Below, in pieces: positions 13,969-53,001 of a stretch of 64,000 bases of DNA. Made by a program: the position numbers and the translations under genes. How positions within the stretch are numbered: position 1 is the first letter of the stretch; each line of letters starts with the position of its first letter. Where the stretch lies: the NCBI GenBank assembly GCA_964016885.1, contig OZ024742.1:178746001-178810000 (forward strand), in the 5' to 3' direction. The stretch comes from Eledone cirrhosa (Eukaryota). Below the pieces are notes generated by a model that saw only the letters and a list, made by a program, of their open reading frames with translations, did not search any database and had not been told where the DNA came from.

Positions 13969-14357
13969 TATACACATATGCATACAGGTACACATACATA
14001 TATGCACGCATCAGTTTAGCCGACGTTTATTATAACGCCTGCTTTGTTCGTTTGTTTGTCAACAAATCGAACAGCCTGAATTTATGCCATACGGTGTTAA
14101 GGCAACCACGTCACCTTTTTGTTCAACACTGACACAGGAACGATGTACTAGTTTCAAGCTTGTTAGCTATCATCAGCACCGTTACCCATCTGCCAGATAG
14201 TTGAACGTTCGAAAGTATATACTTTCCTTATGAAAATTAACGGCTGAGCAGCCTAATTTGCATATTGAGTGAGTTAAATCGGTCAGGCATACCGAAAACG
14301 ATAAGTTGAAAAAAAATGAAAACGAAATTTCATTTCTCATGAAATTTCGTTTTCATG
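13773..14357 (-). mobile_element. Non-coding HHR unit (about 528 bp, about 1.07 copies) with a short fold-back, in (TA)n
   Basis: 13773-13810 repeats directly at 14301-14339; 14340-14356 is an inverted copy of ATGAAAACGAAATTTCA; HHR inside. Confidence 0.75.
14140..14182 (-). ncRNA. Minimal type I hammerhead ribozyme motif
   Basis: Minus strand: ACGGTG-CTGATGA-T AGCT aaca AGCT T-GAAA-CTAG-TA-CATCGT. Confidence 0.88.
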
Positions 14358-14867: not shown

Positions 14868-15025
14868 ATAATTGATCTTGACTCTGTTTTCCGTTTATTT
14901 TTCACCGAAAGTAGTTTTTGAATGCATCTTCTCTTTTCATGATATCCGGATTACATTGAGTTCTTCATACGGATTGGACACTACCGTAAACTTTTGGTAG
15001 ATTTTTCTACATATATATATATATA

Positions 15026-17568
15026 TATGAATATAGACATAGAATATTCGAAAATATTCTGTATGTTTATAATAAACATTTTGAAGACCTAATCGCTATA
15101 GAATAGAATACGTCACGTATTACAATTAGATTCTCGATAAAAGCAAGGGAAGTAATCTACGCGTTTCATTCTTGTTAGAAATCATCAGGACTACATATCC
15201 AGTGCTTTTATCGAGAATGACACAGCTAGAGACTTATAGAATACTTAGCTGTGTACAGGAACTGGTTTGAAAGAGCGGTTGCCGGTCCGGCAGAAATTAG
15301 AAATTGGAATAAATGCTCTGAAATAGCGATATATATGTGAATATAGACATAGAATATTCGAAAATATTCTGTATGTTTATAATAAACATTTTGAAGACCT
15401 AATCGCTATAGAATAGAATACGTCACGTATTACAATTAGATTCTCGATAAAAGCAAGGGAAGTAATCTACGCGTTTCATTCTTGTTAGAAATCATCAGGA
15501 CTACATATCCAGTGCTTTTATCGAGAATGACACATGAAACGCGTAGATTACTTCCCTTGCTTTTATCGAGAATCTAATTGTAATACGTGACGTATTCTAT
15601 TCTATAGCGATTAGGTCTTCAAAATGTTTATTATAAACATACAGAATATTTTCGAATATTCTATGTCTATATTCACATATATATCGCTATTTCAGAGCAT
15701 TTATTCCAATTTCTAATTTCTGCCGGACCGGCAACCGCTCTTTCAAACCAGTTCCTGTACACAGCTAAGTATTCTATAAGTCTCTAGCTGTGTCATTCTC
15801 GATAAAAGCACTGGATATGTAGTCCTGATGATTTCTAACAAGAATGAAACGCGTAGATTACTTCCCTTGCTTTTATCGAGAATCTAATTGTAATACGTGA
15901 CGTATTCTATTCTATAGCGATTAGGTCTTCAAAATGTTTATTATAAACATACAGAATATTTTCGAATATTCTATGTCTATATTCACATATATATCGCTAT
16001 TTCAGAGCATTTATTCCAATTTCTAATTTCTGCCGGACCGGCAACCGCTCTTTCAAACCAGTTCCTGTACACAGCTAAGTATTCTATAAGTCTCTAGCTG
16101 TGTCATTCTCGATAAAAGCACTGGATATGTAGTCCTGATGATTTCTAACAAGAATGAAACGCGTAGATTACTTCCCTTGCTTTTATCGAGAATCTAATTG
16201 TAATACGTGACGTATTCTATTCTATAGCGATTAGGTCTTCAAAATGTTTATTATAAACATACAGAATATTTTCGAATATTCTATGTCTATATTCACATAT
16301 ATATCGCTATTTCAGAGCATTTATTCCAATTTCTAATTTCTGCCGGACCGGCAACCGCTCTTTCAAACCAGTTCCTGTACACAGCTAAGTATTCTATAAG
16401 TCTCTAGCTGTGTCATTCTCGATAAAAGCACTGGATATGTAGTCCTGATTATTTCTAACAAGAATGAAACGCGTAGATTACTTCCCTTGCTTTTATCGAG
16501 AATCTAATTGTAATACGTGACGTATTCTATTCTATAGCGATTAGGTCTTCAAAATGTTTATTATAAACATACAGAATATTTTCGAATATTCTATGTCTAT
16601 ATTCACATATATATCGCTATTTCAGAGCATTTATTCCAATTTCTAATTTCTGCCGGACCGGCAACCGCTCTTTCAAACCAGTTCCTGTACACAGCTAAGT
16701 ATTCTATAAGTCTCTAGCTGTGTCATTCTCGATAAAAGCACTGGATATGTAGTCCTGATGATTTCTAACAAGAATGAAACGCGTAGATTACTTCCCTTGC
16801 TTTTATCGAGAATCTAATTGTAATACGTGACGTATTCTATTCTATAGCGATTAGGTCTTCAAAATGTTTATTATAAACATACAGAATATTTTCGAATATT
16901 CTATGTCTATATTCACATATATATCGCTATTTCAGAGCATTTATTCCAATTTCTAATTTCTGCCGGACCGGCAACCGCTCTTTCAAACCAGTTCCTGTAC
17001 ACAGCTAAGTATTCTATAAGTCTCTAGCTGTGTCATTCTCGATAAAAGCACTGGATATGTAGTCCTGATGATTTCTAACAAGAATGAAACGCGTAGATTA
17101 CTTCCCTTGCTTTTATCGAGAATCTAATTGTAATACGTGACGTATTCTATTCTATAGCGATTAGGTCTTCAAAATGTTTATTATAAACATACAGAATATT
17201 TTCGAATATTCTATGTCTATATTCACATATATATCGCTATTTCAGAGCATTTATTCCAATTTCTAATTTCTGCCGGACCGGCAACCGCTCTTTCAAACCA
17301 GTTCCTGTACACAGCTAAGTATTCTATAAGTCTCTAGCTGTGTCATTCTCGATAAAAGCACTGGATATGTAGTCCTGATGATTTCTAACAAGAATGAAAC
17401 GCGTAGATTACTTCCCTTGCTTTTATCGAGAATCTAATTGTAATACGTGACCTATTCTATTCTATAGCGATTAGGTCTTCAAAATGTTTATTATAAACAT
17501 ACAGAATATTTTCGAATATTCTATGTCTATATTCACATATATATCGCTATTTCAGAGCATTTATTCCA

Positions 17569-17573
<5 letters not shown>
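15026..17573 (+). mobile_element. Retrozyme-like 310-bp tandem array: about 6.6 direct units (15534-17573) preceded by about 1.6 inverted units (15026-15534)
   Basis: GCGTAGATTA recurs at 15541, 15851, 16161, 16471, 16781, 17091 and 17401 (period 310); one HHR per unit; no ORF in the supplied track; (TA)n at both ends. Confidence 0.92.
15819..15861 (+). ncRNA. Minimal type I hammerhead ribozyme (further copies start at 16129, 16439, 16749, 17059, 17369; minus-strand copies at 15152-15194 and 15462-15504)
   Basis: GTAGTC-CTGATGA-T TTCT aaca AGAA T-GAAA-CGCG-TA-GATTAC; stem I is extended past an internal loop by the 16-bp helix ATTCTCGATAAAAGCA/TGCTTTTATCGAGAAT. Confidence 0.93.
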
Positions 17574-17651
<78 letters not shown>

Positions 17652-17824
17652 GTATATATATATATACACACATATATTATATATAGTATACATATAGCAT
17701 ATAAATATAGTATATATATATATGTGTGTGTGGTGTGTGCGTGTAAGTTGACGAGGTTATAGTGTCATTTATATTCTCGCTTGCCAACATTTCTTACTCC
17801 ACACACTCACACATACACACACAC

Positions 17825-41640: not shown

Positions 41641-43359
41641 TCAGATATTCAGGACGTATCGGAGTGTTCTTGCTGTTCCCAGCAAACATGCCTTTTGAAG
41701 CGTCCCAAAAAGCGTGGTGGGGCCAATTTTCTTTAACCATCCCTGGAAACTCTTTGAGATAGTTCCTAGTGCGCCTATGACAATCGGGACTACTTTGACT
41801 TCATGGCAGTTCCAAATCCTTTTTACCTCCCACTTTAAGTCCTGGTATCGGTTAATTTTCTCCCTATCCTTCTCTTGCACTCTCGTGTCGAATGGACAGG
41901 CCACATCCACAATCAGGCACGATCTTTTTTCCTTGTCCACAACCACCAGGTCTGGTCTATTGTGTTCCAGTTTCTTGTCCGTCTGTATCCTAAAATCCCA
42001 CAGCACCTTCACCTGATCGTTTTTTATCACCGACTCTGGCTTATGCTCATACCACTTCTCAGAATGAGGTAAATTGTTTACTTTGCATAGGTACCAGTGG
42101 ATCACCTTGCCCATCACATCATGTCTCCAGCCCTTATAGTGAGTCTGGGATAGGTGTTTACACTCGGATACAATGTGAGCCACAGTCTCCTCTTTCTCTC
42201 CACAGATCCTGCACAGTGGGCTAGCCTCCTCCTTGTAAATATGGTGTTTCAACCACTTCGTTTTGAGGGCCTGCTCTTGCGCGGCCATTAGCATTCCTTC
42301 TGTAGCCTTTTTAAGGTCTCCTCTTTTCAACCAGTTCCATGTCTGTGGATCTCTGAATTCAGTTTTCTCAAAGAAGGTACTATGAAGGGATTTTTCATGA
42401 AGGCTGCTCTTTCTCCTTGTTGTTATTTCCTCCTTGGACATCCCCTGATCTATTGTCCTCTTTTTCAGTACAATTCTGAGCATTGGCTCCTTACTATCAG
42501 TCACGTATTTGTGTAGGTTGTTTTTCTCCATCTGAACACAGTCCTCTATGCTGATAAGTCCTCTTCCACCCTCAGATCTCCTTAAGTAGAGTCTATCGAC
42601 ATCACTCCTCTTGTGGAACATGTTGTAGATAGTCAATAGCTTCCTAGTCTTCCTATCCATTTCTTTTTGTTCAGCAACATTCCACCTCAGAATTCCCGCA
42701 CTGTACCTAATAATAGACACAGCTCGGGAATTTACTGCACTTATGGCATTCCTACTGTTCAGATGTGACTTTAATACGCTCCTTATTCTCCGAATGTATT
42801 CAGATCTTATCAATTCCTTCATTTTTTTGTTCTTGATGTGATCAGCCTCCAGAACACCCAAATACTTGTATCCTTCTTCAGTGTCAATTTCCTTTATCAT
42901 CTCACCTGTTGGTACCTGGATTCCGTTGCTTCTGCTCAATTTACCCCTCTTCATCACAAGGACTCCACACTTACTAATACCAAATTGCATACATATATCA
43001 TTGCTGAAAATTCGGACAGTGTCAACAAGCACATCCAACTCCTTCTCACTCTCTCCGAAGAGCTTAAGTTCGTCCATGAAGAGGAGGTGATTGATGGTTA
43101 GCTCTCCCTTTCCCAACTTGTATCCTGCTCTCACTTTTCGCAGTATAATGGTCAGGGGCATCAGGGCAAGGGCAAACAACAGAGGGGACAGACTATCTCC
43201 CTGGAAGATACCTCTCTTGATCTTCACGCCTCCCAAGGATTCTCCAGCTGATGTTAACTCTGTTTTCCAGGACTTCATACTCTTTCCCAACAATTGTCTG
43301 ATGTTATCTGCCACCTTGAAGATCTGTAGGCTTTTGGTGATCCAAGAATAAGGCACCAT
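41641..43359 (-). pseudogene. 5'-truncated R4/Dong-type LINE copy (element about 41566-43427), RT C-half and RLE
   Basis: Closely parallels the C-terminal 572 aa of 43540-46932; catalytic FMDD reads FMDE; TGG>TAG just upstream; (TAA)-like tracts at both ends. Confidence 0.92.
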
Positions 43360-43539
43360 GTCAAATGCCTTTTTGTAGTCTATCTATCCCATGGCAAGAC
43401 CAGTGTGTCTCCTCTTGCAATTCCTCATTATTATTATTATTATTATTATTATTGTTATTGTTATTCCTTGAATCTCAGTCATTGATGTTGGTTAACTGGA
43501 AAGTCCGTTGGATTGAATATCAAGCCACTACCTGCAGCC

Positions 43540-46500
43540 TCAGATATTCAGGACGTATCGGAGGGTTCTTGCCGTTCCAAGCAAGCATGCCTTTTGAAGC
43601 GTTCCAAAAAGCGTGAAGGGGCCGATTTTCTTTAACCATCCCTGGAAACCTTTGGAGATAGTCCCCAGTGCGCCTATGACAATCGGGATCACTTTGACTT
43701 CATGGCAGTTCCAAATCCTTTTCACCTCCCACTTTAGGTCCTGGTATCGGTTAATTTTCTCCCTCTCCTTCTCTTGCACTCTCGTGTCGAACGGGCAGGC
43801 CACATCCACAATCAGGCACGATCTTTTTTCTTTGTCCACAACCACCAGGTCAGGTCTATTGTGTTCCAGTTTTTTGTCCGTCTGTATCCTAAAATCCCAC
43901 AGCACCTTCACCTGACTGTTCTCCATCACCGCCTCTGGCCTATGCTCATACCATTTCTCAGAATGTGGTAGATTGTTTACTTTGCACAGGTGCCAGTGGA
44001 TCACCCTGCCCATCACATCGTGTCTCCAGCCCTTATAGTGGGTCTGGGCTAGGTGTTTACACTCGGACACAATGTGAGCCACAGTCTCCTCTCTCTCTCC
44101 ACAGATCCTGCACAGTGGGCTAGCCTCCTCCTTGTAGATATGGTGCTTCAACCACTTCGTTTTGAGGGCCTGCTCCTGCGCAGCCATTAGCATTCCTTCT
44201 GTAGCCTTTTTGAGGTCTCCTCTTCTCAACCAGTTCCATGTCTGTGGATCTCTAAATTCAGTTTTCTCAAAGAAGGTACTATGAAGGGATTTTCCCTTAA
44301 GGCTGCTCTTCCTCCTTGATGTTATTTCCTCCTTGGGTATCCCCTGGCCTACTGTCCCCTCCTTCAGTACAGCTCTGAGCATTGGCTCCTTACTATAGGT
44401 CACGTATTTGTATAGGTTGTTTTTCTCCATCTGAACACAGTCCTCTATGCTGATAAGACCTCTTCCACCCTCAGATCTCCTTAGGTAGAGTCTATCGACA
44501 TCACTCCTCTTGTGGAACATGTTGTAGATAGTCAATAGCTTCCTAGTCTTCCTATCCATTTCTTTTTGTTCAGCAACATTCCATCTCAGAATTCCCGCAC
44601 TGTACCTAATAATAGACACAGCTCGGGAATTTACTGCGCTTATGGCATTTCTGCTGTTCAGATGTGACTTCAATACGCTCCTTACTCTCCGAATGTATTC
44701 AGTTCTTAACAATTCCTTCATTTTTTTGTTCTTTATGCCATCAGCCTCCAGAACGCCCAAATACTTGTATCCTTCCTCAGAGTCAATTTCCTTTATCATC
44801 TCACCTGTTGGTATCTGGATCCCGTTACTTCTGCTCAACCTACCCCTCCTCATCACAATGACTCCACATTTACCAATACCAAACTGCATACATATATCAC
44901 TGCTGAAAATACGGACAGTGTCAACAAGCACATCCAACTCCTTCTCACTTTTCCCGAAGAGCTTAAGATCGTCCATGAAGAGGAGGTGATTGATGGTAAG
45001 CTCTCCCCTTCCCAACTTGTATCCTGCTCTCACTTTTCGCAGCATAATGGTCAAGGGCATCAGGGCAAGGACAAACAACAGAGGGGACAGGCTATCTCCC
45101 TGGAAGATACCTCTCTTGATCTTCACGCTTCCCAAGGATACTCCAGTTGATGTCAACTCTGTCTCCCAGGACCCCATACTCCTGCCCAGCAACTGTCTGA
45201 TGTTATCTGCCACCCTGAAGATCTCCAGGCTTTTGGTGATCCAGGAATGAGGCACCATGTCAAATGCCTTTCTGTAGTCTATCCATCCCATGGCAAGATC
45301 AGTGTGTCTCCTCCTGCAATTCCCCATTACCATCTTATCAATAAGCAACTGGTCCTTTGTACCACGTGACTTCTTTCGGCATCCTTTCTGTTCGTCCGGC
45401 AACAAGTTGTTTGTGTGGAGGTGATGGTAGATTTCCTCAGACACAATGCTCGTCAACAGTTTCCACATTACGGGCAGACATGTGATAGGTCTATAGTTGG
45501 CAACATCATTACCCTTGATTCGGTCTTTCATTATCAGAACTGTGGTACCTTTTGTCAACCACTCTGGCACCTCACCCGACACCAAGCAGTCATTGAACAT
45601 GGCCGTCAGCTTCGGGTGGAGGGATGTTAAATGTTTAATCCAATACCCCTGCACACCATCTGGGCCTGGTGATTTCCAGTTGGTTAGTTTTTTGGCTTGC
45701 CCCTTAAGAGTTTCAACTGTGATACTCAAATCAGTCTGTTGCTGTGCCTGCTCACCGATCTCCCTCTGTACTGTCTCAATCCACCCTGCCTGGGCATTGT
45801 GTCCAACATCCTGCTCCCATATTCCTCTCCAGAATGTTTTAGCTTGTTCCGCCCCAGGGATCAAGTCGTTGCCTCTTTCTTTCCCCTCAAGCTGTCCAAA
45901 CAGCATCTTCTGGTTGTTGTCGAACATGCGGTTCTGTTTATACTGACTGACTCTGTTCTCGTATCGCCTGATTTTGGCACTCTTTGCTACAATGCGTTGC
46001 TTCAATTCCTCTATGATAATATTTAGCTTTTTACTCCTAGTTTTGTATTTTATTTCCAGTCTATTTTTAGTGCCTATGTTTTTTAGTGTCCCATTCAGTA
46101 GTGACTCAAGCTTTCCTATGTCATTTCTCATTTCCCCGATTTGCCCACTCAGTCGCTTCTTCCACCACGGCTCTGCTCTTTCTTGTCTGTTGTTTCCTCT
46201 CGCTTTTATACCAAGTAGTTTCCTCACCGTATTTGCTGTTGCTTTGAGGATATTGTTGCACTGGTGAAGACTCCTCGCCTCAAGGTATGGGATGACTTTG
46301 TTTACCTTAGCTGTTGTTTCTTTTAACTTTTTCCTGTCTACAAATCTTAGGTTCATAGGTCTCCCACTATCATTGTTCAACTCATCTACCACTAAATTTA
46401 GGATGTCAACCGAATCTTGTCCTAGCCCGTCAGCATTCATCTCCTCAGTGGCCGTATCTCTGTTCCAGGTATTATTTATCTCAGTATTCAGATCATTGTC

Positions 46501-46932
46501 TGCTTCGGGTGGTTCCTCCGTTCTCAGGACCTCTTCACCTTCATTTCCCGCCGGCTCGCTTGTCTGGCATACTACACCCGCCATCTCCAAGCCATTATCT
46601 CTGCTCAGTTCCTCCAGTTCCAGCTCGCTTATCCACCCATTAGTTCTTATTACCCGAGCCTGCCCGGCCAATTTTTGTTCATCTAATTTAAATAAACCAA
46701 TCTCGTTCCAGATGTTATGCATCCGTCTCCTGTAGCCCCTCTCCTTGGGGTTACTTTTCAGGTAGCATTGCATAACAGTTCTATTCAATTCTTTCGTCCA
46801 GTTGGTTCTGGCCCCTTTCCTTCTTCTTCTTCCTCCAACATCAGCAGTATTTGGTTGACAGTCAGGTTCCTGCTGCTGAGCCAGGGGGCACCTGTTGGGT
46901 GAGAGTCTGTCACATGACGTTCTAGTCTCCAT
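43540..46932 (-). CDS. Intact R4/Dong-type non-LTR retrotransposon polyprotein (RT, CCHC finger, restriction-like endonuclease), 1130 aa
   Basis: KSPGPDG, YRPITCL, QGDSLSPLLF, LFMDD, YKYLG, CRICGEREETVAHIVSEC, RHD, RPD..DVACPFD..EKINRY; no APE domain; 76-bp 3' UTR then (TAA)n. Confidence 0.95.
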   Translation of the reverse strand: METRTSCDRLSPNRCPLAQQQEPDCQPNTADVGGRRRRKGARTNWTKELNRTVMQCYLKSNPKERGYRRRMHNIWNEIGLFKLDEQKLAGQARVIRTNGWISELELEELSRDNGLEMAGVVCQTSEPAGNEGEEVLRTEEPPEADNDLNTEINNTWNRDTATEEMNADGLGQDSVDILNLVVDELNNDSGRPMNLRFVDRKKLKETTAKVNKVIPYLEARSLHQCNNILKATANTVRKLLGIKARGNNRQERAEPWWKKRLSGQIGEMRNDIGKLESLLNGTLKNIGTKNRLEIKYKTRSKKLNIIIEELKQRIVAKSAKIRRYENRVSQYKQNRMFDNNQKMLFGQLEGKERGNDLIPGAEQAKTFWRGIWEQDVGHNAQAGWIETVQREIGEQAQQQTDLSITVETLKGQAKKLTNWKSPGPDGVQGYWIKHLTSLHPKLTAMFNDCLVSGEVPEWLTKGTTVLIMKDRIKGNDVANYRPITCLPVMWKLLTSIVSEEIYHHLHTNNLLPDEQKGCRKKSRGTKDQLLIDKMVMGNCRRRHTDLAMGWIDYRKAFDMVPHSWITKSLEIFRVADNIRQLLGRSMGSWETELTSTGVSLGSVKIKRGIFQGDSLSPLLFVLALMPLTIMLRKVRAGYKLGRGELTINHLLFMDDLKLFGKSEKELDVLVDTVRIFSSDICMQFGIGKCGVIVMRRGRLSRSNGIQIPTGEMIKEIDSEEGYKYLGVLEADGIKNKKMKELLRTEYIRRVRSVLKSHLNSRNAISAVNSRAVSIIRYSAGILRWNVAEQKEMDRKTRKLLTIYNMFHKRSDVDRLYLRRSEGGRGLISIEDCVQMEKNNLYKYVTYSKEPMLRAVLKEGTVGQGIPKEEITSRRKSSLKGKSLHSTFFEKTEFRDPQTWNWLRRGDLKKATEGMLMAAQEQALKTKWLKHHIYKEEASPLCRICGEREETVAHIVSECKHLAQTHYKGWRHDVMGRVIHWHLCKVNNLPHSEKWYEHRPEAVMENSQVKVLWDFRIQTDKKLEHNRPDLVVVDKEKRSCLIVDVACPFDTRVQEKEREKINRYQDLKWEVKRIWNCHEVKVIPIVIGALGTISKGFQGWLKKIGPFTLFGTLQKACLLGTARTLRYVLNI

Positions 46933-47501
46933 TTCACCGTTATTCGAACTGTTTATGTTCGATATTTAAACACTCTTATCGAGGATTGGCGAATGTATGT
47001 TTACATAGCCATCTGTGGATCCGCCATCCCACTTGGCCCTTGTGTGGCATTATCACCACGCTGTATACGGACACACATAAACAAACAAACACACGGGCAG
47101 AAAGGGCCCCAAAAATGAATAAGCATAAGTTTCATTGTAATGTAGTATTCGAATGTCTGACTTAGTTTTTGTTTTTTAAGTTTTACTTTTTCCCCCCTCT
47201 TCTCTGTCCGTCCGCCTGCTTCTCTCTTCATTCTTATTTTCTTTACGTTTTTGGGGTTTCTTTTTTTGTTTTTGTTTTTCTCTGTTTTTCTCGTTTTTTA
47301 CTGTTGTTGCTGTGCTGCTTTTGTTGTTTGTTTTTTCTTTTTTCTTTTGAGTCTATCTATATATTTTGATGCCTTCCTCTTTATTAGTAGTAGGAATTCT
47401 ATAATGTGGAAGTGGTAGCCAGCAGAGACTGGCGGCGTTGGCGATACTGAGACAGTGGTGGTGGTGATGTCGATACCGAGGCAGTGGTGGCGGTGATGCG
47501 A

Positions 47502-48474
47502 CCGTATTACTGTAGTGATGGTGCTGTAGCGGTGGCAGCAGCAGTGAAGGAGTCAGGGGGTGGTGGCGGCGGTGATGGGATAGTGGTGGTAATGATGGCC
47601 GTAGTGAGCGGTGGCAGTGAAGGTGAAAATGCTGTTGTGTTCAGTGTACACAGATGATGGGGTGGGTGGTGTATCTAGTTTCTGGTGTTGGTGAGTTTCG
47701 CTGTCCTATATAGTGTAGCCAGAGGAGAGGAGGGGGGGGGGGTTCTTCTTCTTCCATTTATAGCCATTTTATTTTTTTTTTTGGATATACAGTGTACAAT
47801 ACAAAGTTGAATATTTGAATATTTGAGCCGTATTACTGTAGTGATGGTGCTGTAGCGGTGGCAGCAGCAGTGAAGGAGTCAAGGGGTGGTGGCGGCGGTG
47901 ATGGGATAGTGGTGGTAATGATGGCCGTAGTGAGCGGTGGCGGTGAAGGTGAAAATGTTGTTGTGTTTAGTGTACACAGATGATGGGGTGGGTGGTGTAT
48001 CTAGTTTCTGGTGTTGGTGAGTTTCGCTGTCCTATATAGTGTAGCCAGAGGAGAGGAGGGGGGGGGTTCTTCTTCTTCCATTTATAGCCATTTTTTTTTT
48101 TTTTTTTTGGATATACAGTGTACAATACAAAGTTGAATATTTGAATATTTGAGCCGTATTACTGTAGTGATGGTGCTGTAGCGGTGGCAGCAGCAGTGAA
48201 GGAGTCAAGGGGTGGTGGCGGCGGTGATGGGATAGTGGTGGTAATGATGGCCGTAGTGAGCGGTGGCGGTGAAGGTGAAAATGCTGTTGTGTTTAGTGTA
48301 CACAGATGATGGGGTGGGTGGTGTATCTAGTTTCTGGTGTTGGTGAGTTTAGCTGTCCTATATAGTGTAGCCAGAGGAGAGGAGGGGGGGGGGGTTCTTC
48401 TTCTTCCATTTATAGCCATTTTTTTTTGGATATACAGTGTACAATACAAAGTTGAATATTTGAATATTTGAGCC
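47502..48474 (-). repeat. Three 326-bp tandem monomers upstream of the R4/Dong-type ORF
   Basis: CCGTATTACTGTAG at 47502, 47828 and 48154; copies differ mainly in homopolymer length. Confidence 0.92.
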
Positions 48475-48640
48475 TTATAACAATATATTTTGGGTCCGAA
48501 TTTTTTTGGGGCTCAAGCCGGGTGCTTTACGTAGCATTTGTACTAAGAGTTGTTATTTCACAAATGATTTAAATATGTTAAAAATTCAAAACTTACGGGA
48601 GCGATTTCATGACCTCCGTCACCTCGTGCGTCTTCTTCCC

Positions 48641-48729: not shown

Positions 48730-49408
48730 GGCGACTTACGTAGTAAATCGTATCATCGTGAGCTCCGCAAAGGTTTGTTATTTTCAGTTGTTCAAAATTG
48801 CCATTCATGGAAAATTTTATTGTTAATTGTATATAAGTGCACATACATTGTTATCTGAAAAGGACACCCAAAAAGATTGGGGCCTTGAGCCCAAAATTGA
48901 AACTTTTATAATTAGCAAACAAAAAACTTTCTTTGAAAAATCATGGCCAACTCAGTAGCTGAGAGCCTTCCTCACAAACTAACACCTTCCACCGACACCA
49001 CCATTGTAAATATTACTACGTTTGCCAACACTAAAAAAAATATAAGCAGTTGCAATATTTTAAATTTGTCTCAGGCAGACATTCATTTCCCGCCATTACC
49101 AATGACTGCAGGTGTTAAAGCCGCCACCACCACCACCACCACCGCGACAACCCCCACCCCCACCCCCACCACCACAGCGACAACCAGCACCCCCACCCCC
49201 ACCGCGACAACAGAAACAAAAGAAAAAATTAATTAACCCGTGATATCGAAATGAATTCAACCAAAATGAACTCTTCCACACCGAACACCACTGACGCCAC
49301 CACCACCACAACTGAAACTAAAATTAATAATAACAAAAATAACGATAACAACAACAGCAACATTGACATTAAGGAAACCACCCTGAGTTTTGCCAGAGTA
49401 GCAAAACA

Positions 49409-50593
49409 GTGCGAAGCATTTCAGGTAACTCAGGAGGAATTAGAAGAAGCCAAAAAAATGGTAAAGAAAGATGGGTACAGGGTCAGCCTCACCCCCCACC
49501 TAATAAAATGGAGCATCGGCACCTATGCACCGTGTCTTATCGAACAATTAATATAAAATCGCGCCGAGTGGAACGGGCATCCGAGTTCCAAATCCAAAAA
49601 GCTTTGGGACATGTGTGGGCAAAAAAAACCCACATCAGACGTGGGCAGAAGTATGGAACCGTGGATGTATTCTTTGAAACACCACAGGAGGCTAGAGAAC
49701 ACTCCATGGCCCCATTAAGAAGTGACGACTTCACACTCGTCCCAAGCTATTGTGGCCAGAGACTCGTAAAGATCAGGGTCACCCACGTTCCACCGGCCAT
49801 CGAAATTCCCTGGCTAATAGCTGCCGTCCTCGCCGGCATCGAAGCCAACACCAAGATAATAGAAATAGCGAAAGAAAAGCAGGAGAACTGGTCCGGATCT
49901 GGGATGGAGCTCCTGATCCAAGCGGACCAAAAAAGCATTGAGGAGATCCCAGAGGTAATAGACCTCACTGACGGCAGCCACCTCACCGTAATTGTCGAGG
50001 GCAGAAGGCCTAGGTGTGTCGTTTGTGGTGAAGCAACCCACCTAAGGGCTTTCTGCCCTCAGGCTAAAAGGATGAGGCTACCTCTCCTACCCACCCCAGT
50101 GACTCAACCATCAACACCACCAGCAGCAGAGATGGCGGCAACAACTGTAGCAGCAACAATAGAAGCAACTATAACAGCAACAACCCCAGTAACAGTAGCA
50201 AAACCAACACCACCACCACCCAACGCTTCAGAACTAGCACCAGTGCCTACACCATCCACCACGCCACAACCAAAACTAACGTCCCGCTCTTTAGTGTTAG
50301 TGGGCGACTGGAACGGGATCTTAGATGCACGCTGGGATTGTGTGGGATTAGTGGATAGGGGAGGAGTGTGCAAGAGTCTCACCAACCTGCTCAGGCGTTT
50401 TGAACTGTCTGACAGGTACCGATTGGATTTCCCGAATGTGCCAATGTGGACTTGGACAAATCGCATCGGATCATCCAGATCATATCTAGATAGAGTATTT
50501 TGTAGGGAAATAGATAGGTCTAGCATAGGCTGTCCACAATTCAAGATAGTCAGCTACACGGACCACAAATTCGTGATCTGTGTGCTTGACTAA
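49409..50593 (+). pseudogene. ORF1 (zinc knuckle) fused in frame to the C-terminal half of the APE endonuclease
   Basis: CVVCGEATHLRAFC and a Pro/Thr linker, then LVGDWN..WTW..SYLDR..TDHK after a junction near 50279. Confidence 0.8.
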
Positions 50594-50874
50594 GAAAGGC
50601 TTCATAGACGAGGACCCGGCTACTGGAAGCTAAACGCGTCCTTACCAGCGCGCAAGGCCTACAGAGACCGGATTAGCGAACTAGTTAAGCGGGCGTTGAC
50701 GGGGCCATCGTCAACAAGAAGTGGTGGTTTGCTCTGAAAAGAGCAATTAGAATAGAGTCCATTAGGTTTAGTAAGGCTTTAGCAATAGAGAAAAATAGAG
50801 CAGAGGGAGAATTAGTTAGAAAATTAGACGAGGCGCTTTGCAAAGGCATCACGACCGAGGTATTTGCGGCGAAA

Positions 50875-53001
50875 TTGGCCCTTGACCAATTCTTCAATGC
50901 AAAGCACGGAGGCTGTGTTGTCAGAGCTAGGATGCGTGCTCTCAGACACGAGGGGACGAAAGCCGTTCAATGGGCCCGAGTGGCGGAGGCGCGTCGTGGC
51001 AACAAAGCCACGATCCGGTCTTTGGTGGACCACGACGGGCGCATGCTACTCGATCCCGGGAAAATGTGTGAAGCTTTTCAGCGACACTTCGCTCAACTGT
51101 TCGGGGGCAGTGGCGGGCCGGATCGAGGGATGGACTTTAGTGTCTACCTCGACGGACTGCCGCGGCTCTTGGCCACTGAGGCGGAGTGTTGTAAAAAGTC
51201 GATAACAGCCGCTGAAGTACGGGAGGCAATGACTGGCTGCACAAGGGGTAAATCGCCTGGTTTGGATGGTCTGCCCTATGAACTTTACGTACAAATGCCA
51301 GACTTGTTCGGAGGCCACTTGGCGGACGTCTACTGCAACTGGCAACAGAACGGGAGAATTCTCAGCTCTGTGAGCCGAGGAGCGGTGGCGCTGCTGAGAA
51401 AGGATCCGAACAAGGGGGATAACATAGATAATTTTAGGCCCATAACTCTGCTAAACACAGAGTTCAAGATTTTGGCCAAGGTGCTAGCAAAGAGGTTGGC
51501 GCTTGTCGTTGATGGTCTGTTAGGAGAGGCGCAGACATGCGCCATTCCCGACAGATCCATCCGCGACAACCTCCACCTCATGCGATACATCGTAGAGAGG
51601 GTAGCTAGGGAACCTGACAAGGGTGGGTCTTTGATAAATTTAGATCAGTCGAAAGCCTTCGATAGGCTCGACCATCGTTACCTAGCGGCAGTCCAGAGGG
51701 CGGCTGGCTTTGGGCCCGTCTTCAGAGGCTGGATCGCTGCCATGCACAGCGACATCTGCTCTGTGGTGAGAGTGAACGGTCACCTTTCGGAACCGTTCAA
51801 CATCATGCGCTCGGTCCGCCAAGGATGTCCCCTCTCGTCCCTCTTGTACGTATTGACTCTCGAGCCATTACTGCACAAACTGGAGACGTTGAGGGGGGTC
51901 CCGCGCGAACTAGGATGCGGAAGATCCGTGTCAGCATATGCGGACGATGTCACCGTAGTGGTGTCGAACGCCAAACACATCGAGGCGATCGGCACTACAC
52001 TAAGAGAATACGAAGCGGTGACAGGAGCAATGATCAACCAGGAAAAGTCAGTGGGCCTGCAGCTCGGCACCTGGAGAGGCAGGTCCATGCCGTCCAACAG
52101 CGTCGTCGGGAGCTGGATGGACGGACCGGTTAAATTGCTAGGGGTCTGGTTCGGTCCGGACCTCCAGACGGACAAAAACTGGGACGAGGTGACGAGCAGG
52201 GTGGCTTCTCTCACCCAGAAATGGGCCGAGAGGAAGCTATCGTTGAAAAGTCGAGCGGAGGTGGCTAACGCGTACATCGCGTCCGTCATCTACTACCGCC
52301 TGACCGTCGTACCTTGTCCTAAGCCCCGCCTGACTGCGCTGGAGCGTTTGCTCTTTCGCTTTTTGTGGAAAGGACGCGCTCCGATGGTCAGGCGGTCCAT
52401 CTGCTGTCAACACCCGCTACGTGGAGGGCTAGGCGTTCCGTGGCTGATGATGCGCAGACACGCGCTCAGGCTACGACATCTCCACCTCTTCCTCGATGGT
52501 GATCAGGTGTGGTCGCCGTTTGCTAGACACGTCTTTCCCCAGCTCGTCTCCTTGACGGAGCTGCAGTCCTGGGTCAAGCGAAGACCGAGAGGGAGCGCTT
52601 GGAGACTGGAATGTCTTCAGGCGCTCACAGCCCTCGACCAATCGGGCAATGTGATCGGTGGAAACTCCATCTTGGCGTTCTATAGAGGATTAGTGGAGGG
52701 GAAGAGCGACGACGTACTTGGAGAAACTCTAGGCGTCGACGAAAATCAACTAGCCAATCTCTTCGGAAGGACATTCGGGCCGGGGCCTATGGACAACTTC
52801 CAGAAATCCCTGGCCTGGCAGTGCTACCGTGGAGCTTTGCCAGTTCGGGATAAACTCTACAGGCATGGAGGTGCCGTCAGCCTGGCATGTCCGAGATGCG
52901 CGCAGGGCGACGAAACCGTCCTGCACGCACTCGTCCAGTGTCCGAAAATTGCTGACTTGTGGGTTTATGTCGGATCCAGCTATCAGCTGAGTCTATCGTA
53001 A
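50875..53001 (+). pseudogene. Tx1-like ORF2 reverse transcriptase portion (708-aa open segment)
   Basis: KSPGLDGL, FRPITLLN, LDQSKAFDR, VRQGCPLS, AYADD; cut off from APE by a stop at 50591 and a frameshift; C-terminus frameshifted near 52970. Confidence 0.9.

Follow-up and report, generated by a model that had tools for sequence, protein, structure and literature searches.

The window, meaning the whole 64,000-nucleotide stretch of Eledone cirrhosa DNA that was analysed, carries a tandem array with a period of 310 bp and a total of 8.2 units, arranged as two arms of opposite orientation (Table 1). The direct arm (2,040 bp, 99% matches by TRF) carries substitutions at exactly two positions (16450 G>T; 17452 G>C), and the inverted arm (507 bp) has none. 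Positions within the unit are given as phases, where phase 1 is the first base past the predicted GUA cut, i.e. 15856. The outer end of the inverted arm lies at phase 130 and that of the direct arm at phase 168, a difference of 38 nt, and (TA)n adjoins the array at both ends. No listed open reading frame of at least 120 aa overlaps the array, and its GC content is 0.32–0.35. An earlier sequence-only reading had described a non-coding array of about 8.2 units with the same two substitutions, both ends in (TA)n and a direct arm reaching about 40 nt beyond the inverted one, and all of this was recovered; its inverted part of about 1.6 units was found as well (1.64 units), with a start at 15028 rather than 15026.

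The window also contains other repeats. At 47502–48478 a unit of 326 bp occurs three times in tandem (96% alike, with a T tract in each); a hammerhead motif was searched for there and none was found. A stop-free non-LTR retrotransposon frame of 1,141 aa with RVT_1 and zf-RVT domains lies at 43540–46965 (−) and is followed by a related truncated copy at 41641–43383 (−). Judged by eye from the translations, there is an L1/Tx1-like two-frame element at 49373–53001 (+) and a decayed relative of it at 10777–12222 (+).

Table 1. Features of the 310-bp array and its surroundings (positions within the window).
Feature	Position	Strand	Remarks
Left (TA)n target microsatellite	15011..15027	.	
Inverted arm	15028..15534	−	1.64 units, 5'→3' phase 244 to 130; outer (RNA 3') end is the short 'S' end
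Head-to-head arm junction	15534..15534	.	1-nt microhomology, phases 244 and 299
Direct arm	15534..17573	+	6.6 units, phase 299 to 168; outer end is the long 'T' end
Type I hammerhead	15795..15883	+	Core motif, fold, covariation
Hammerhead parts	CUGAUGA 15825–15831; GAAA 15846–15849; predicted cut after 15855	+	ACGCGU is the palindromic helix III
Monomer between two predicted cleavage sites	15856..16165	+	Predicted 310-nt RNA; circular fold
Two tandem hairpins	15934..15972	+	Phases 79–95 and 98–117, just 5' of the S end
Hammerhead core altered by G8U (16450)	16445..16451	+	Predicted inactive copy
35-nt 'tail'	17536..17570	+	Phases 131–165, in the T-end arm only; begins with CAUAUAUAU
Right (TA)n target microsatellite	17574..17723	.	

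The array contains eight complete hammerhead cores, of which seven are intact. The substitution at 16450 changes CUGAUGA to CUGAUUA (G8U), and a ninth GAAACGCGTA at 15536 is interrupted by the arm junction; the earlier statement that each unit has a hammerhead therefore needs these two exceptions. Helix I has a distal part of 16 bp and a proximal part of 6 bp, and in the circular monomer fold 20 of its 22 pairs have a probability of 0.85–1.0, the two outermost distal pairs having 0.71 and 0.52. The fold as a whole has a minimum free energy of −67.8 kcal/mol (z = −4.3, and none of 100 shuffles is as low). Helix II consists of 4 bp with a U.U mismatch at its base; in the monomer fold its probability is about 0.15 and that of helix III about 0. 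In the predicted dimer, the ACGCGU motifs of two hammerheads form an intermolecular duplex of −9.5 kcal/mol. Canonical metazoan hammerheads have been defined by a helix I of 6 bp, a helix II of 4 bp and a helix III of 1–2 bp with a palindromic loop, and minimal (PLE-type) ones by an absent helix III, a helix II of 7–8 bp and a helix I of 4–5 bp (PMC4209133). Since its helix I of 6 bp (plus 16 bp), helix II of 4 bp and palindromic helix III fit the canonical definition, the modelled ribozyme is a canonical metazoan type I hammerhead that would be expected to work as a dimer. The type I topology, the palindromic stem III and the 16-bp distal stem I had been read correctly from the letters, but the label 'minimal' does not hold.

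Rfam, which had been proposed as a check, did not recognise this hammerhead: no match within the window array reaches the gathering score, and the best match below it is Hammerhead_HH9 with 19.2 bits (cut-off 52, E = 0.099). What supports the call is thus the core motif together with the fold and covariation. Two other Rfam matches, mir-1255 and sau-5971, are a product of the inverted junction and were rejected. A 37-nt pattern of the core has 4,541 exact matches in the genome and its reversed control has 0, which excludes chance. Five more hammerhead-like motifs, from other families, lie in the window at 14146–14176 (−), 14713 (−), 57938 (+), 35907 (+) and 20407 (−). The motif at 14176 (−) is built like the retrozyme hammerhead (U.U at helix II, AACA loop, palindromic tetraloop, GUA), and two of the five have a core of the U3-A8 type.

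Part of the covariation comes from a sister retrozyme family with units of about 317–320 nt and 2,293 pattern matches, which is older and more diverged (loci L190–L248, L138, L139 and L088). Its units are collinear throughout with the window-family unit, for which reason a swapped-in hammerhead in the sister family was rejected, and it has the same two end sites and the 35-nt tail; a loose end-caller finds opposite-strand S+T pairs at 6 distinct loci. When the window unit is aligned with 23 sister units, two-sided changes occur at 21 of 43 pairs, a number reached in none of 500 shuffles and compared with 4–10 in slid controls, the structure being derived from the same alignment and the sequences being related. 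Of 55 cases, 50 retain the core 3-8 pair (33 U-A and 17 C-G) and 5 are unpaired. The two tandem hairpins immediately before the S end, on its 5' side, rank with the best conserved parts (97% paired) and the sister family preserves them with compensatory changes; they may represent a module to which the reverse transcriptase (RT) binds.

Searches with exact patterns, for which reversed controls gave 0, find 16,522 units of the window family genome-wide, about 5.1 Mb or 0.17% of the 3.0-Gb genome, in approximately 1,300–1,500 insertions. S ends at phase 130 run into (TA)n in 1,245 cases (reversed control 0), and T ends at phase 165 do so in 686 cases on the forward strand and about 1,370 in total (reversed control 0). 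Changes seen in a single unit amount to 0.045% per base over 170 kb, which makes the family very young. The sequence-only reading had called the insertion very young and had foreseen dispersed multimers with the same 3' end in (TA)n, and more than 1,200 such loci now bear this out. Targeting of (TA)n is nearly absolute. A G or C five bases past the T end occurs in only 15 cases genome-wide, and in 13 of these the T end still enters TA-type repeats, with one internal deletion and one complex sequence making up the rest. A duplication of about 12 bp is readable at three loci, L034 (12–15 bp), L129 and L144; at the window locus the target duplication is masked by the microsatellite. No LTR structure was seen at the retrozyme insertions, and poly(A) is absent.

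It is worth considering that inverted repeats in microsatellites are hard to assemble, and that no read-derived contig spans the window locus. That the inversion is false, or that the array collapsed in assembly, is nevertheless scarcely credible with more than 1,200 loci that have their own junction phases and fixed variants and yet end at the same two outer positions. Six sequencing runs of unknown kind from 4 studies contain 93–97% of the retrozyme words, and no RNA run is among those listed. Four of the six were assembled: runs X1, X3 and X6 each give one cyclic contig of 340 nt (310 + 30), a result that tandem DNA would equally give, and X2 gives 929 contigs. As some of these runs may also stem from the sample that was assembled, the contigs do not bear on expression or on independent confirmation.

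The feature is thus real, and by the features compared (unit size, GC, hammerhead, dispersal and a duplication of more than 4 bp) it classifies as a non-LTR retrozyme. Non-LTR retrozymes were defined by Cervera and de la Pena (2020, PMC7229834), who showed circles in coral, mussel and axolotl and proposed Penelope-like elements (PLEs) as helpers. The metazoan families described there are likewise non-coding tandem units (150–450 bp) of low GC with a type I hammerhead, and they have duplications of more than 4 bp and a self-paired predicted circle, as seen for the axolotl Rtz331/353 among others. Two axolotl ribozymes come close in detail: HHR_Amex1 has the one-pair helix III with a palindromic tetraloop and HHR_Amex2 the U.U at the base of helix II. 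By contrast, the parts of that study consulted describe neither head-to-head arms nor a pair of fixed ends nor a strict targeting of (TA)n for metazoan retrozymes, all of which are found here for a family whose RNA is predicted.

The arrangement at the window locus recurs across the family. The survey covered 72 insertions; both ends could be read in 61, and the 11 that are cut off were excluded. In 57 of the 61, two arms on opposite strands meet head-to-head with one S and one T end; one more has two T ends and three have a single arm. The sample was picked mostly by the T end, which inflates the share of two-armed insertions (58/61) but does not predetermine the position of the other end. 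In an end-blind list of 18 insertions, taken from the first 100 of the 16,522 matches, 14 are head-to-head, 3 are single-arm, 1 is unreadable and none is tail-to-tail, meaning that 14 of 17 readable ones are two-armed, and each of the 12 head-to-head insertions whose ends were checked is S+T. The fixed outer ends lie at phases of about 130 (S) and 165 (T), 35 nt apart. Median arm length is 940 for S and 1,447 for T; the T arm is the longer one in 31 of 56 cases (p = 0.064), and either arm can be longer.

These fixed ends bear on the idea that the family is satellite DNA spreading by extrachromosomal circles, by recombination or by a LINE protein, with the hammerhead as a passenger. Long arrays do evolve in a satellite-like way and intact LINE-type frames are present in the window, but the two ends fixed at a distance of 35 nt, the near-absolute targeting of (TA)n, duplications of about 12 bp, the absence of poly(A) and the covariation at the RNA level all speak against it. 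The fixed-end rule has already largely refuted this explanation, which is very improbable.

The inner (5') ends of the arms behave differently from the outer ones. They are uniform round the monomer (122 ends, chi-square p = 0.45) without a pile-up at the ribozyme cut, suggesting that the template was continuous across the cut site. A scar at the ligation site was considered and rejected, as singletons are spread evenly and only 2 of the 122 ends lie within 3 nt of the cut. The junction phases of the two arms are independent of each other (51 pairs, KS p = 0.93), with 4 of 51 pairs within 15 nt of each other where 5.1 are expected. Among 35 flush joins, 22 have a microhomology of at least 2 nt against an expected 18% (p = 7e-9), and a further 16 joins have inserts of 1–15 nt, apart from one of 272 nt. 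The latter (L037:3099–3370) is an unrelated GC-rich sequence captured at the arm junction, without a match to the L186 PLE peptides. Independent phases together with microhomology suggest that each end of the target primed its own cDNA and that the cDNAs were then joined end to end. The inverted arm is better read as such a second, independently primed cDNA than as an addition to one rolling-circle product.

A single priming event could also be imagined: folding back of the nascent cDNA, or a switch of template onto it, would produce the inverted arm, and the end at 130 would be an endonuclease cut made in the element DNA during resolution. Endonuclease resolution has been offered as a guess for the PLE tail (PMC8557442), at L104 the junction shows homology over 16 nt within the distal helix, and some junctions have short inverted inserts. 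In such a case, however, the unrelated junction phases of the two arms are not accounted for, nor is it clear why either arm may be longer and why single-arm insertions end at S or at T; moreover, RT start sites in vitro coincide with the tail ends (PMC11167929). A single priming event is therefore improbable.

L1 retrotransposons offer a precedent for independent priming. In L1 twin priming, inverted arms come from two target-primed cDNAs that are joined by microhomology. The second primer anneals at variable internal sites there and inversion is a minority outcome, whereas in the retrozyme both starts are fixed and two arms are found in the majority of insertions.

PLEs are a closer match. 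Craig et al. (2021, PMC8557442) list an inverted 5'-truncated copy, a tail of 30–40 nt at one end and (TA)n targets among PLE features; PLEs of the Hydra clade target (TA)n, and the bias is seen in Hydra, Naiad and Neptune. For Poseidon PAc, Frangieh et al. (2024, PMC11167929) found that the PLE protein cleaves both strands and extends them, starting at two internal sites that mark off the tail; in vitro, insertion used the same start sites on both strands and did not need hammerhead cleavage. The retrozyme has in common with these elements the inverted truncated copy, the 30–40-nt tail, (TA)n, a hammerhead and two internal starts. It differs in that its 310-nt unit lacks an ORF and is repeated up to tens of times, and in having its starts 130 and 165 nt past the cut in non-coding sequence. 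By analogy, the inverted arm, the tail of about 35 nt and the (TA)n ends are most readily taken as the signature of PLE integration, recurring across the family. PLE-type integration, whichever template was copied and whether priming happened once or twice, is highly probable, and the verdict is that of a new retrozyme family with a PLE footprint. The earlier proposal of integration by a PLE RT/GIY-YIG protein is partly supported, with the change that the inverted arm probably has a priming of its own.

The family bears on what moves animal retrozymes, as it leaves a PLE footprint at more than 1,000 near-identical loci. A 2020 review states that animal retrozyme repeats show no motif indicating their helper (PMC7761336). 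In Xenopus, Li, Clavereau and Pollet (2026, 10.64898/2026.07.22.740005) drew a link between non-LTR retrozymes and PLE termini from their similarity, and saw activity in 1 of 9 dimers. There, as here, a PLE is the proposed mobiliser and PLEs co-occur in the genome, but the link consists of co-occurrence and pLTR similarity, whereas here it is the insertion footprint; the words 'tail', 'inversion' and 'head-to-head' have 0 occurrences in the preprint text. No report of the inverted copy, tail and (TA)n footprint together in retrozymes was found in the open literature, and the family may be catalogued in repeat databases.

A helper was sought among the PLEs, which are abundant in the genome. The window itself contains the 3' fragment of a PLE ORF at 7042–7746 (−), with a CxCX5C linker and a GIY-YIG-like domain, Hydra-like by its motifs; it has 157 scored matches, the best of which are 75–96% identical. 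This family was rejected as the helper because its 3' UTR is unrelated to the retrozyme in 30 loci. A PLE family hammerhead with the same U.U in helix II has 28,844 pattern matches genome-wide. In this PLE family (L156–L185 and L249), an intact stop-free frame of 758 aa is found in 18 of 150 scored matches, and its motifs (RWR, DKT, CxCX5C, CCHH absent) suggest a place in the Hydra clade as described in PMC8557442. Head-to-head pairs occur in the family too, but their two ends lie at +21 and +89 past its own cut, giving a tail of about 68 nt, which exceeds the 30–40 nt known from print; it shares with the retrozyme only 25 of 28 hammerhead bases, 12 of which are core. It is a candidate helper whose tail differs (about 68 nt vs 35 nt). 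The retrozyme module was not seen to run into a PLE ORF in any of 30 of the 2,293 module-variant matches or in any of 29/29 downstream-variant matches, and pLTR homology between retrozyme and PLEs was not found in two targeted pattern searches and in the two PLE families, of many, that were examined. The lack of a helper ORF joined to the module in these searches and the different tail length of the L249 family count as evidence against the proposed mechanism.

What kind of RNA was copied can be judged from the variants. In 57 insertions there are 87 fixed variants (locus-variant pairs, usually in both arms), 77 in single units and 12 partial ones, making 25 haplotypes. Lineages that each go through a stage of one unit, as they would with a circle, are expected to show variants that are mostly either fixed or single. 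At L128, L129 and L035b, however, the two arms have unit-specific variants in common, and L117 is a mixture of two alleles; a single monomer circle is not sufficient at these loci. L134 has an arm of 45 units and L106 one of 27, and both are mosaics in which variants recur; the length of long arms is thus no measure of RT processivity. Shared variants and mosaics together suggest that multimer templates or later exchange also occur. In L134, with L187, the 14-kb arm shows a higher-order recurrence of variants, like a retrozyme insertion becoming a satellite.

It is also informative where the variants fall. Of the substitutions in helices I and II, all 6 fixed ones preserve the pairing and none of the 10 singletons does (p = 1.2e-4), one junction-edge change and indels being excluded from this classification. 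Fixed changes in the core are confined to the free N7 position, and singletons reach G8 and helix III. The hammerhead is under selection, and because fixed changes spare the catalytic core and the helices, the predicted cleavage would be important for transmission.

The same twin priming by a PLE could have used a mostly uncut linear multimer transcript, with length regained by unequal exchange and circles as a side product or an occasional bottleneck. The unit-specific variants in both arms at L128, L129 and L035b and the mosaic long arrays agree with this, as do the weak helices II and III in the monomer, the inactivity of most Xenopus dimers (10.64898/2026.07.22.740005) and the in vitro finding that the PLE needed no hammerhead cleavage (PMC11167929). 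Such a template is fairly unlikely all the same: it would take repeated bottlenecks of a single unit to produce 87 fixed and 12 partial variants, and 25 haplotypes among 57 insertions, and the sparing of core and helices by fixed changes is again difficult to reconcile with it. A circle as the main route has somewhat better than an even chance. The claim of rolling-circle reverse transcription of a 310-nt circle in the sequence-only reading is thus favoured by the mostly fixed variants, but does not cover the few loci whose arms share unit variants, or the mosaics.

Taken as a whole, the account that we favour, with moderate confidence, is that of a very young non-autonomous non-LTR retrozyme moved by a PLE protein, with a circle as template and twin priming. 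The array would be transcribed, and adjacent hammerheads would pair via ACGCGU and cut after GUA, after which a host ligase would close the 310-nt circle, as in other retrozymes. A PLE RT/GIY-YIG protein would then bind the hairpin module and cut (TA)n with a stagger of about 12 nt, in line with the targeting and with the duplication seen at 3 loci. Both target 3' ends would prime reverse transcription, at phases 165 and 130, where the ends are observed and the priming is modelled on PLE biochemistry; the tail start CAUAUAUAU could pair with a (TA)n primer. Each RT would circuit the template for a variable distance, and the cDNAs would be joined head-to-head by 0–5 nt of microhomology or a few added bases, as the junctions show, giving two inverted arms and one tail. 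Unequal exchange would later reshape long arrays, of which the mosaics are the visible trace. A more specific version, in which two PLE RTs, probably a dimer, prime at the fixed sites 35 nt apart and roll round a ribozyme-made circle, is tentative, at slightly less than an even chance.

If this is true, the movement of animal retrozyme circles by PLEs is shown by its footprint, the 'inverted copy plus tail' of PLEs is an obligate twin priming with one short and one long start, and hammerhead cleavage is selected in the cycle although it is dispensable in vitro. The two exact start sites and the conserved hairpin module would provide a minimal 310-nt substrate for tests of PLE priming and rolling-circle copying. 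The family is also a natural mutational scan of a hammerhead under selection. On the RNA strand, A>G makes up 7 of 22 fixed substitution types and 5 of 65 singletons. Two such changes, 20A>G and 276A>G, have turned up repeatedly, on several haplotypes; the excess among fixed variants could reflect A-to-I editing of the RNA intermediate, or tolerance of G.U only.
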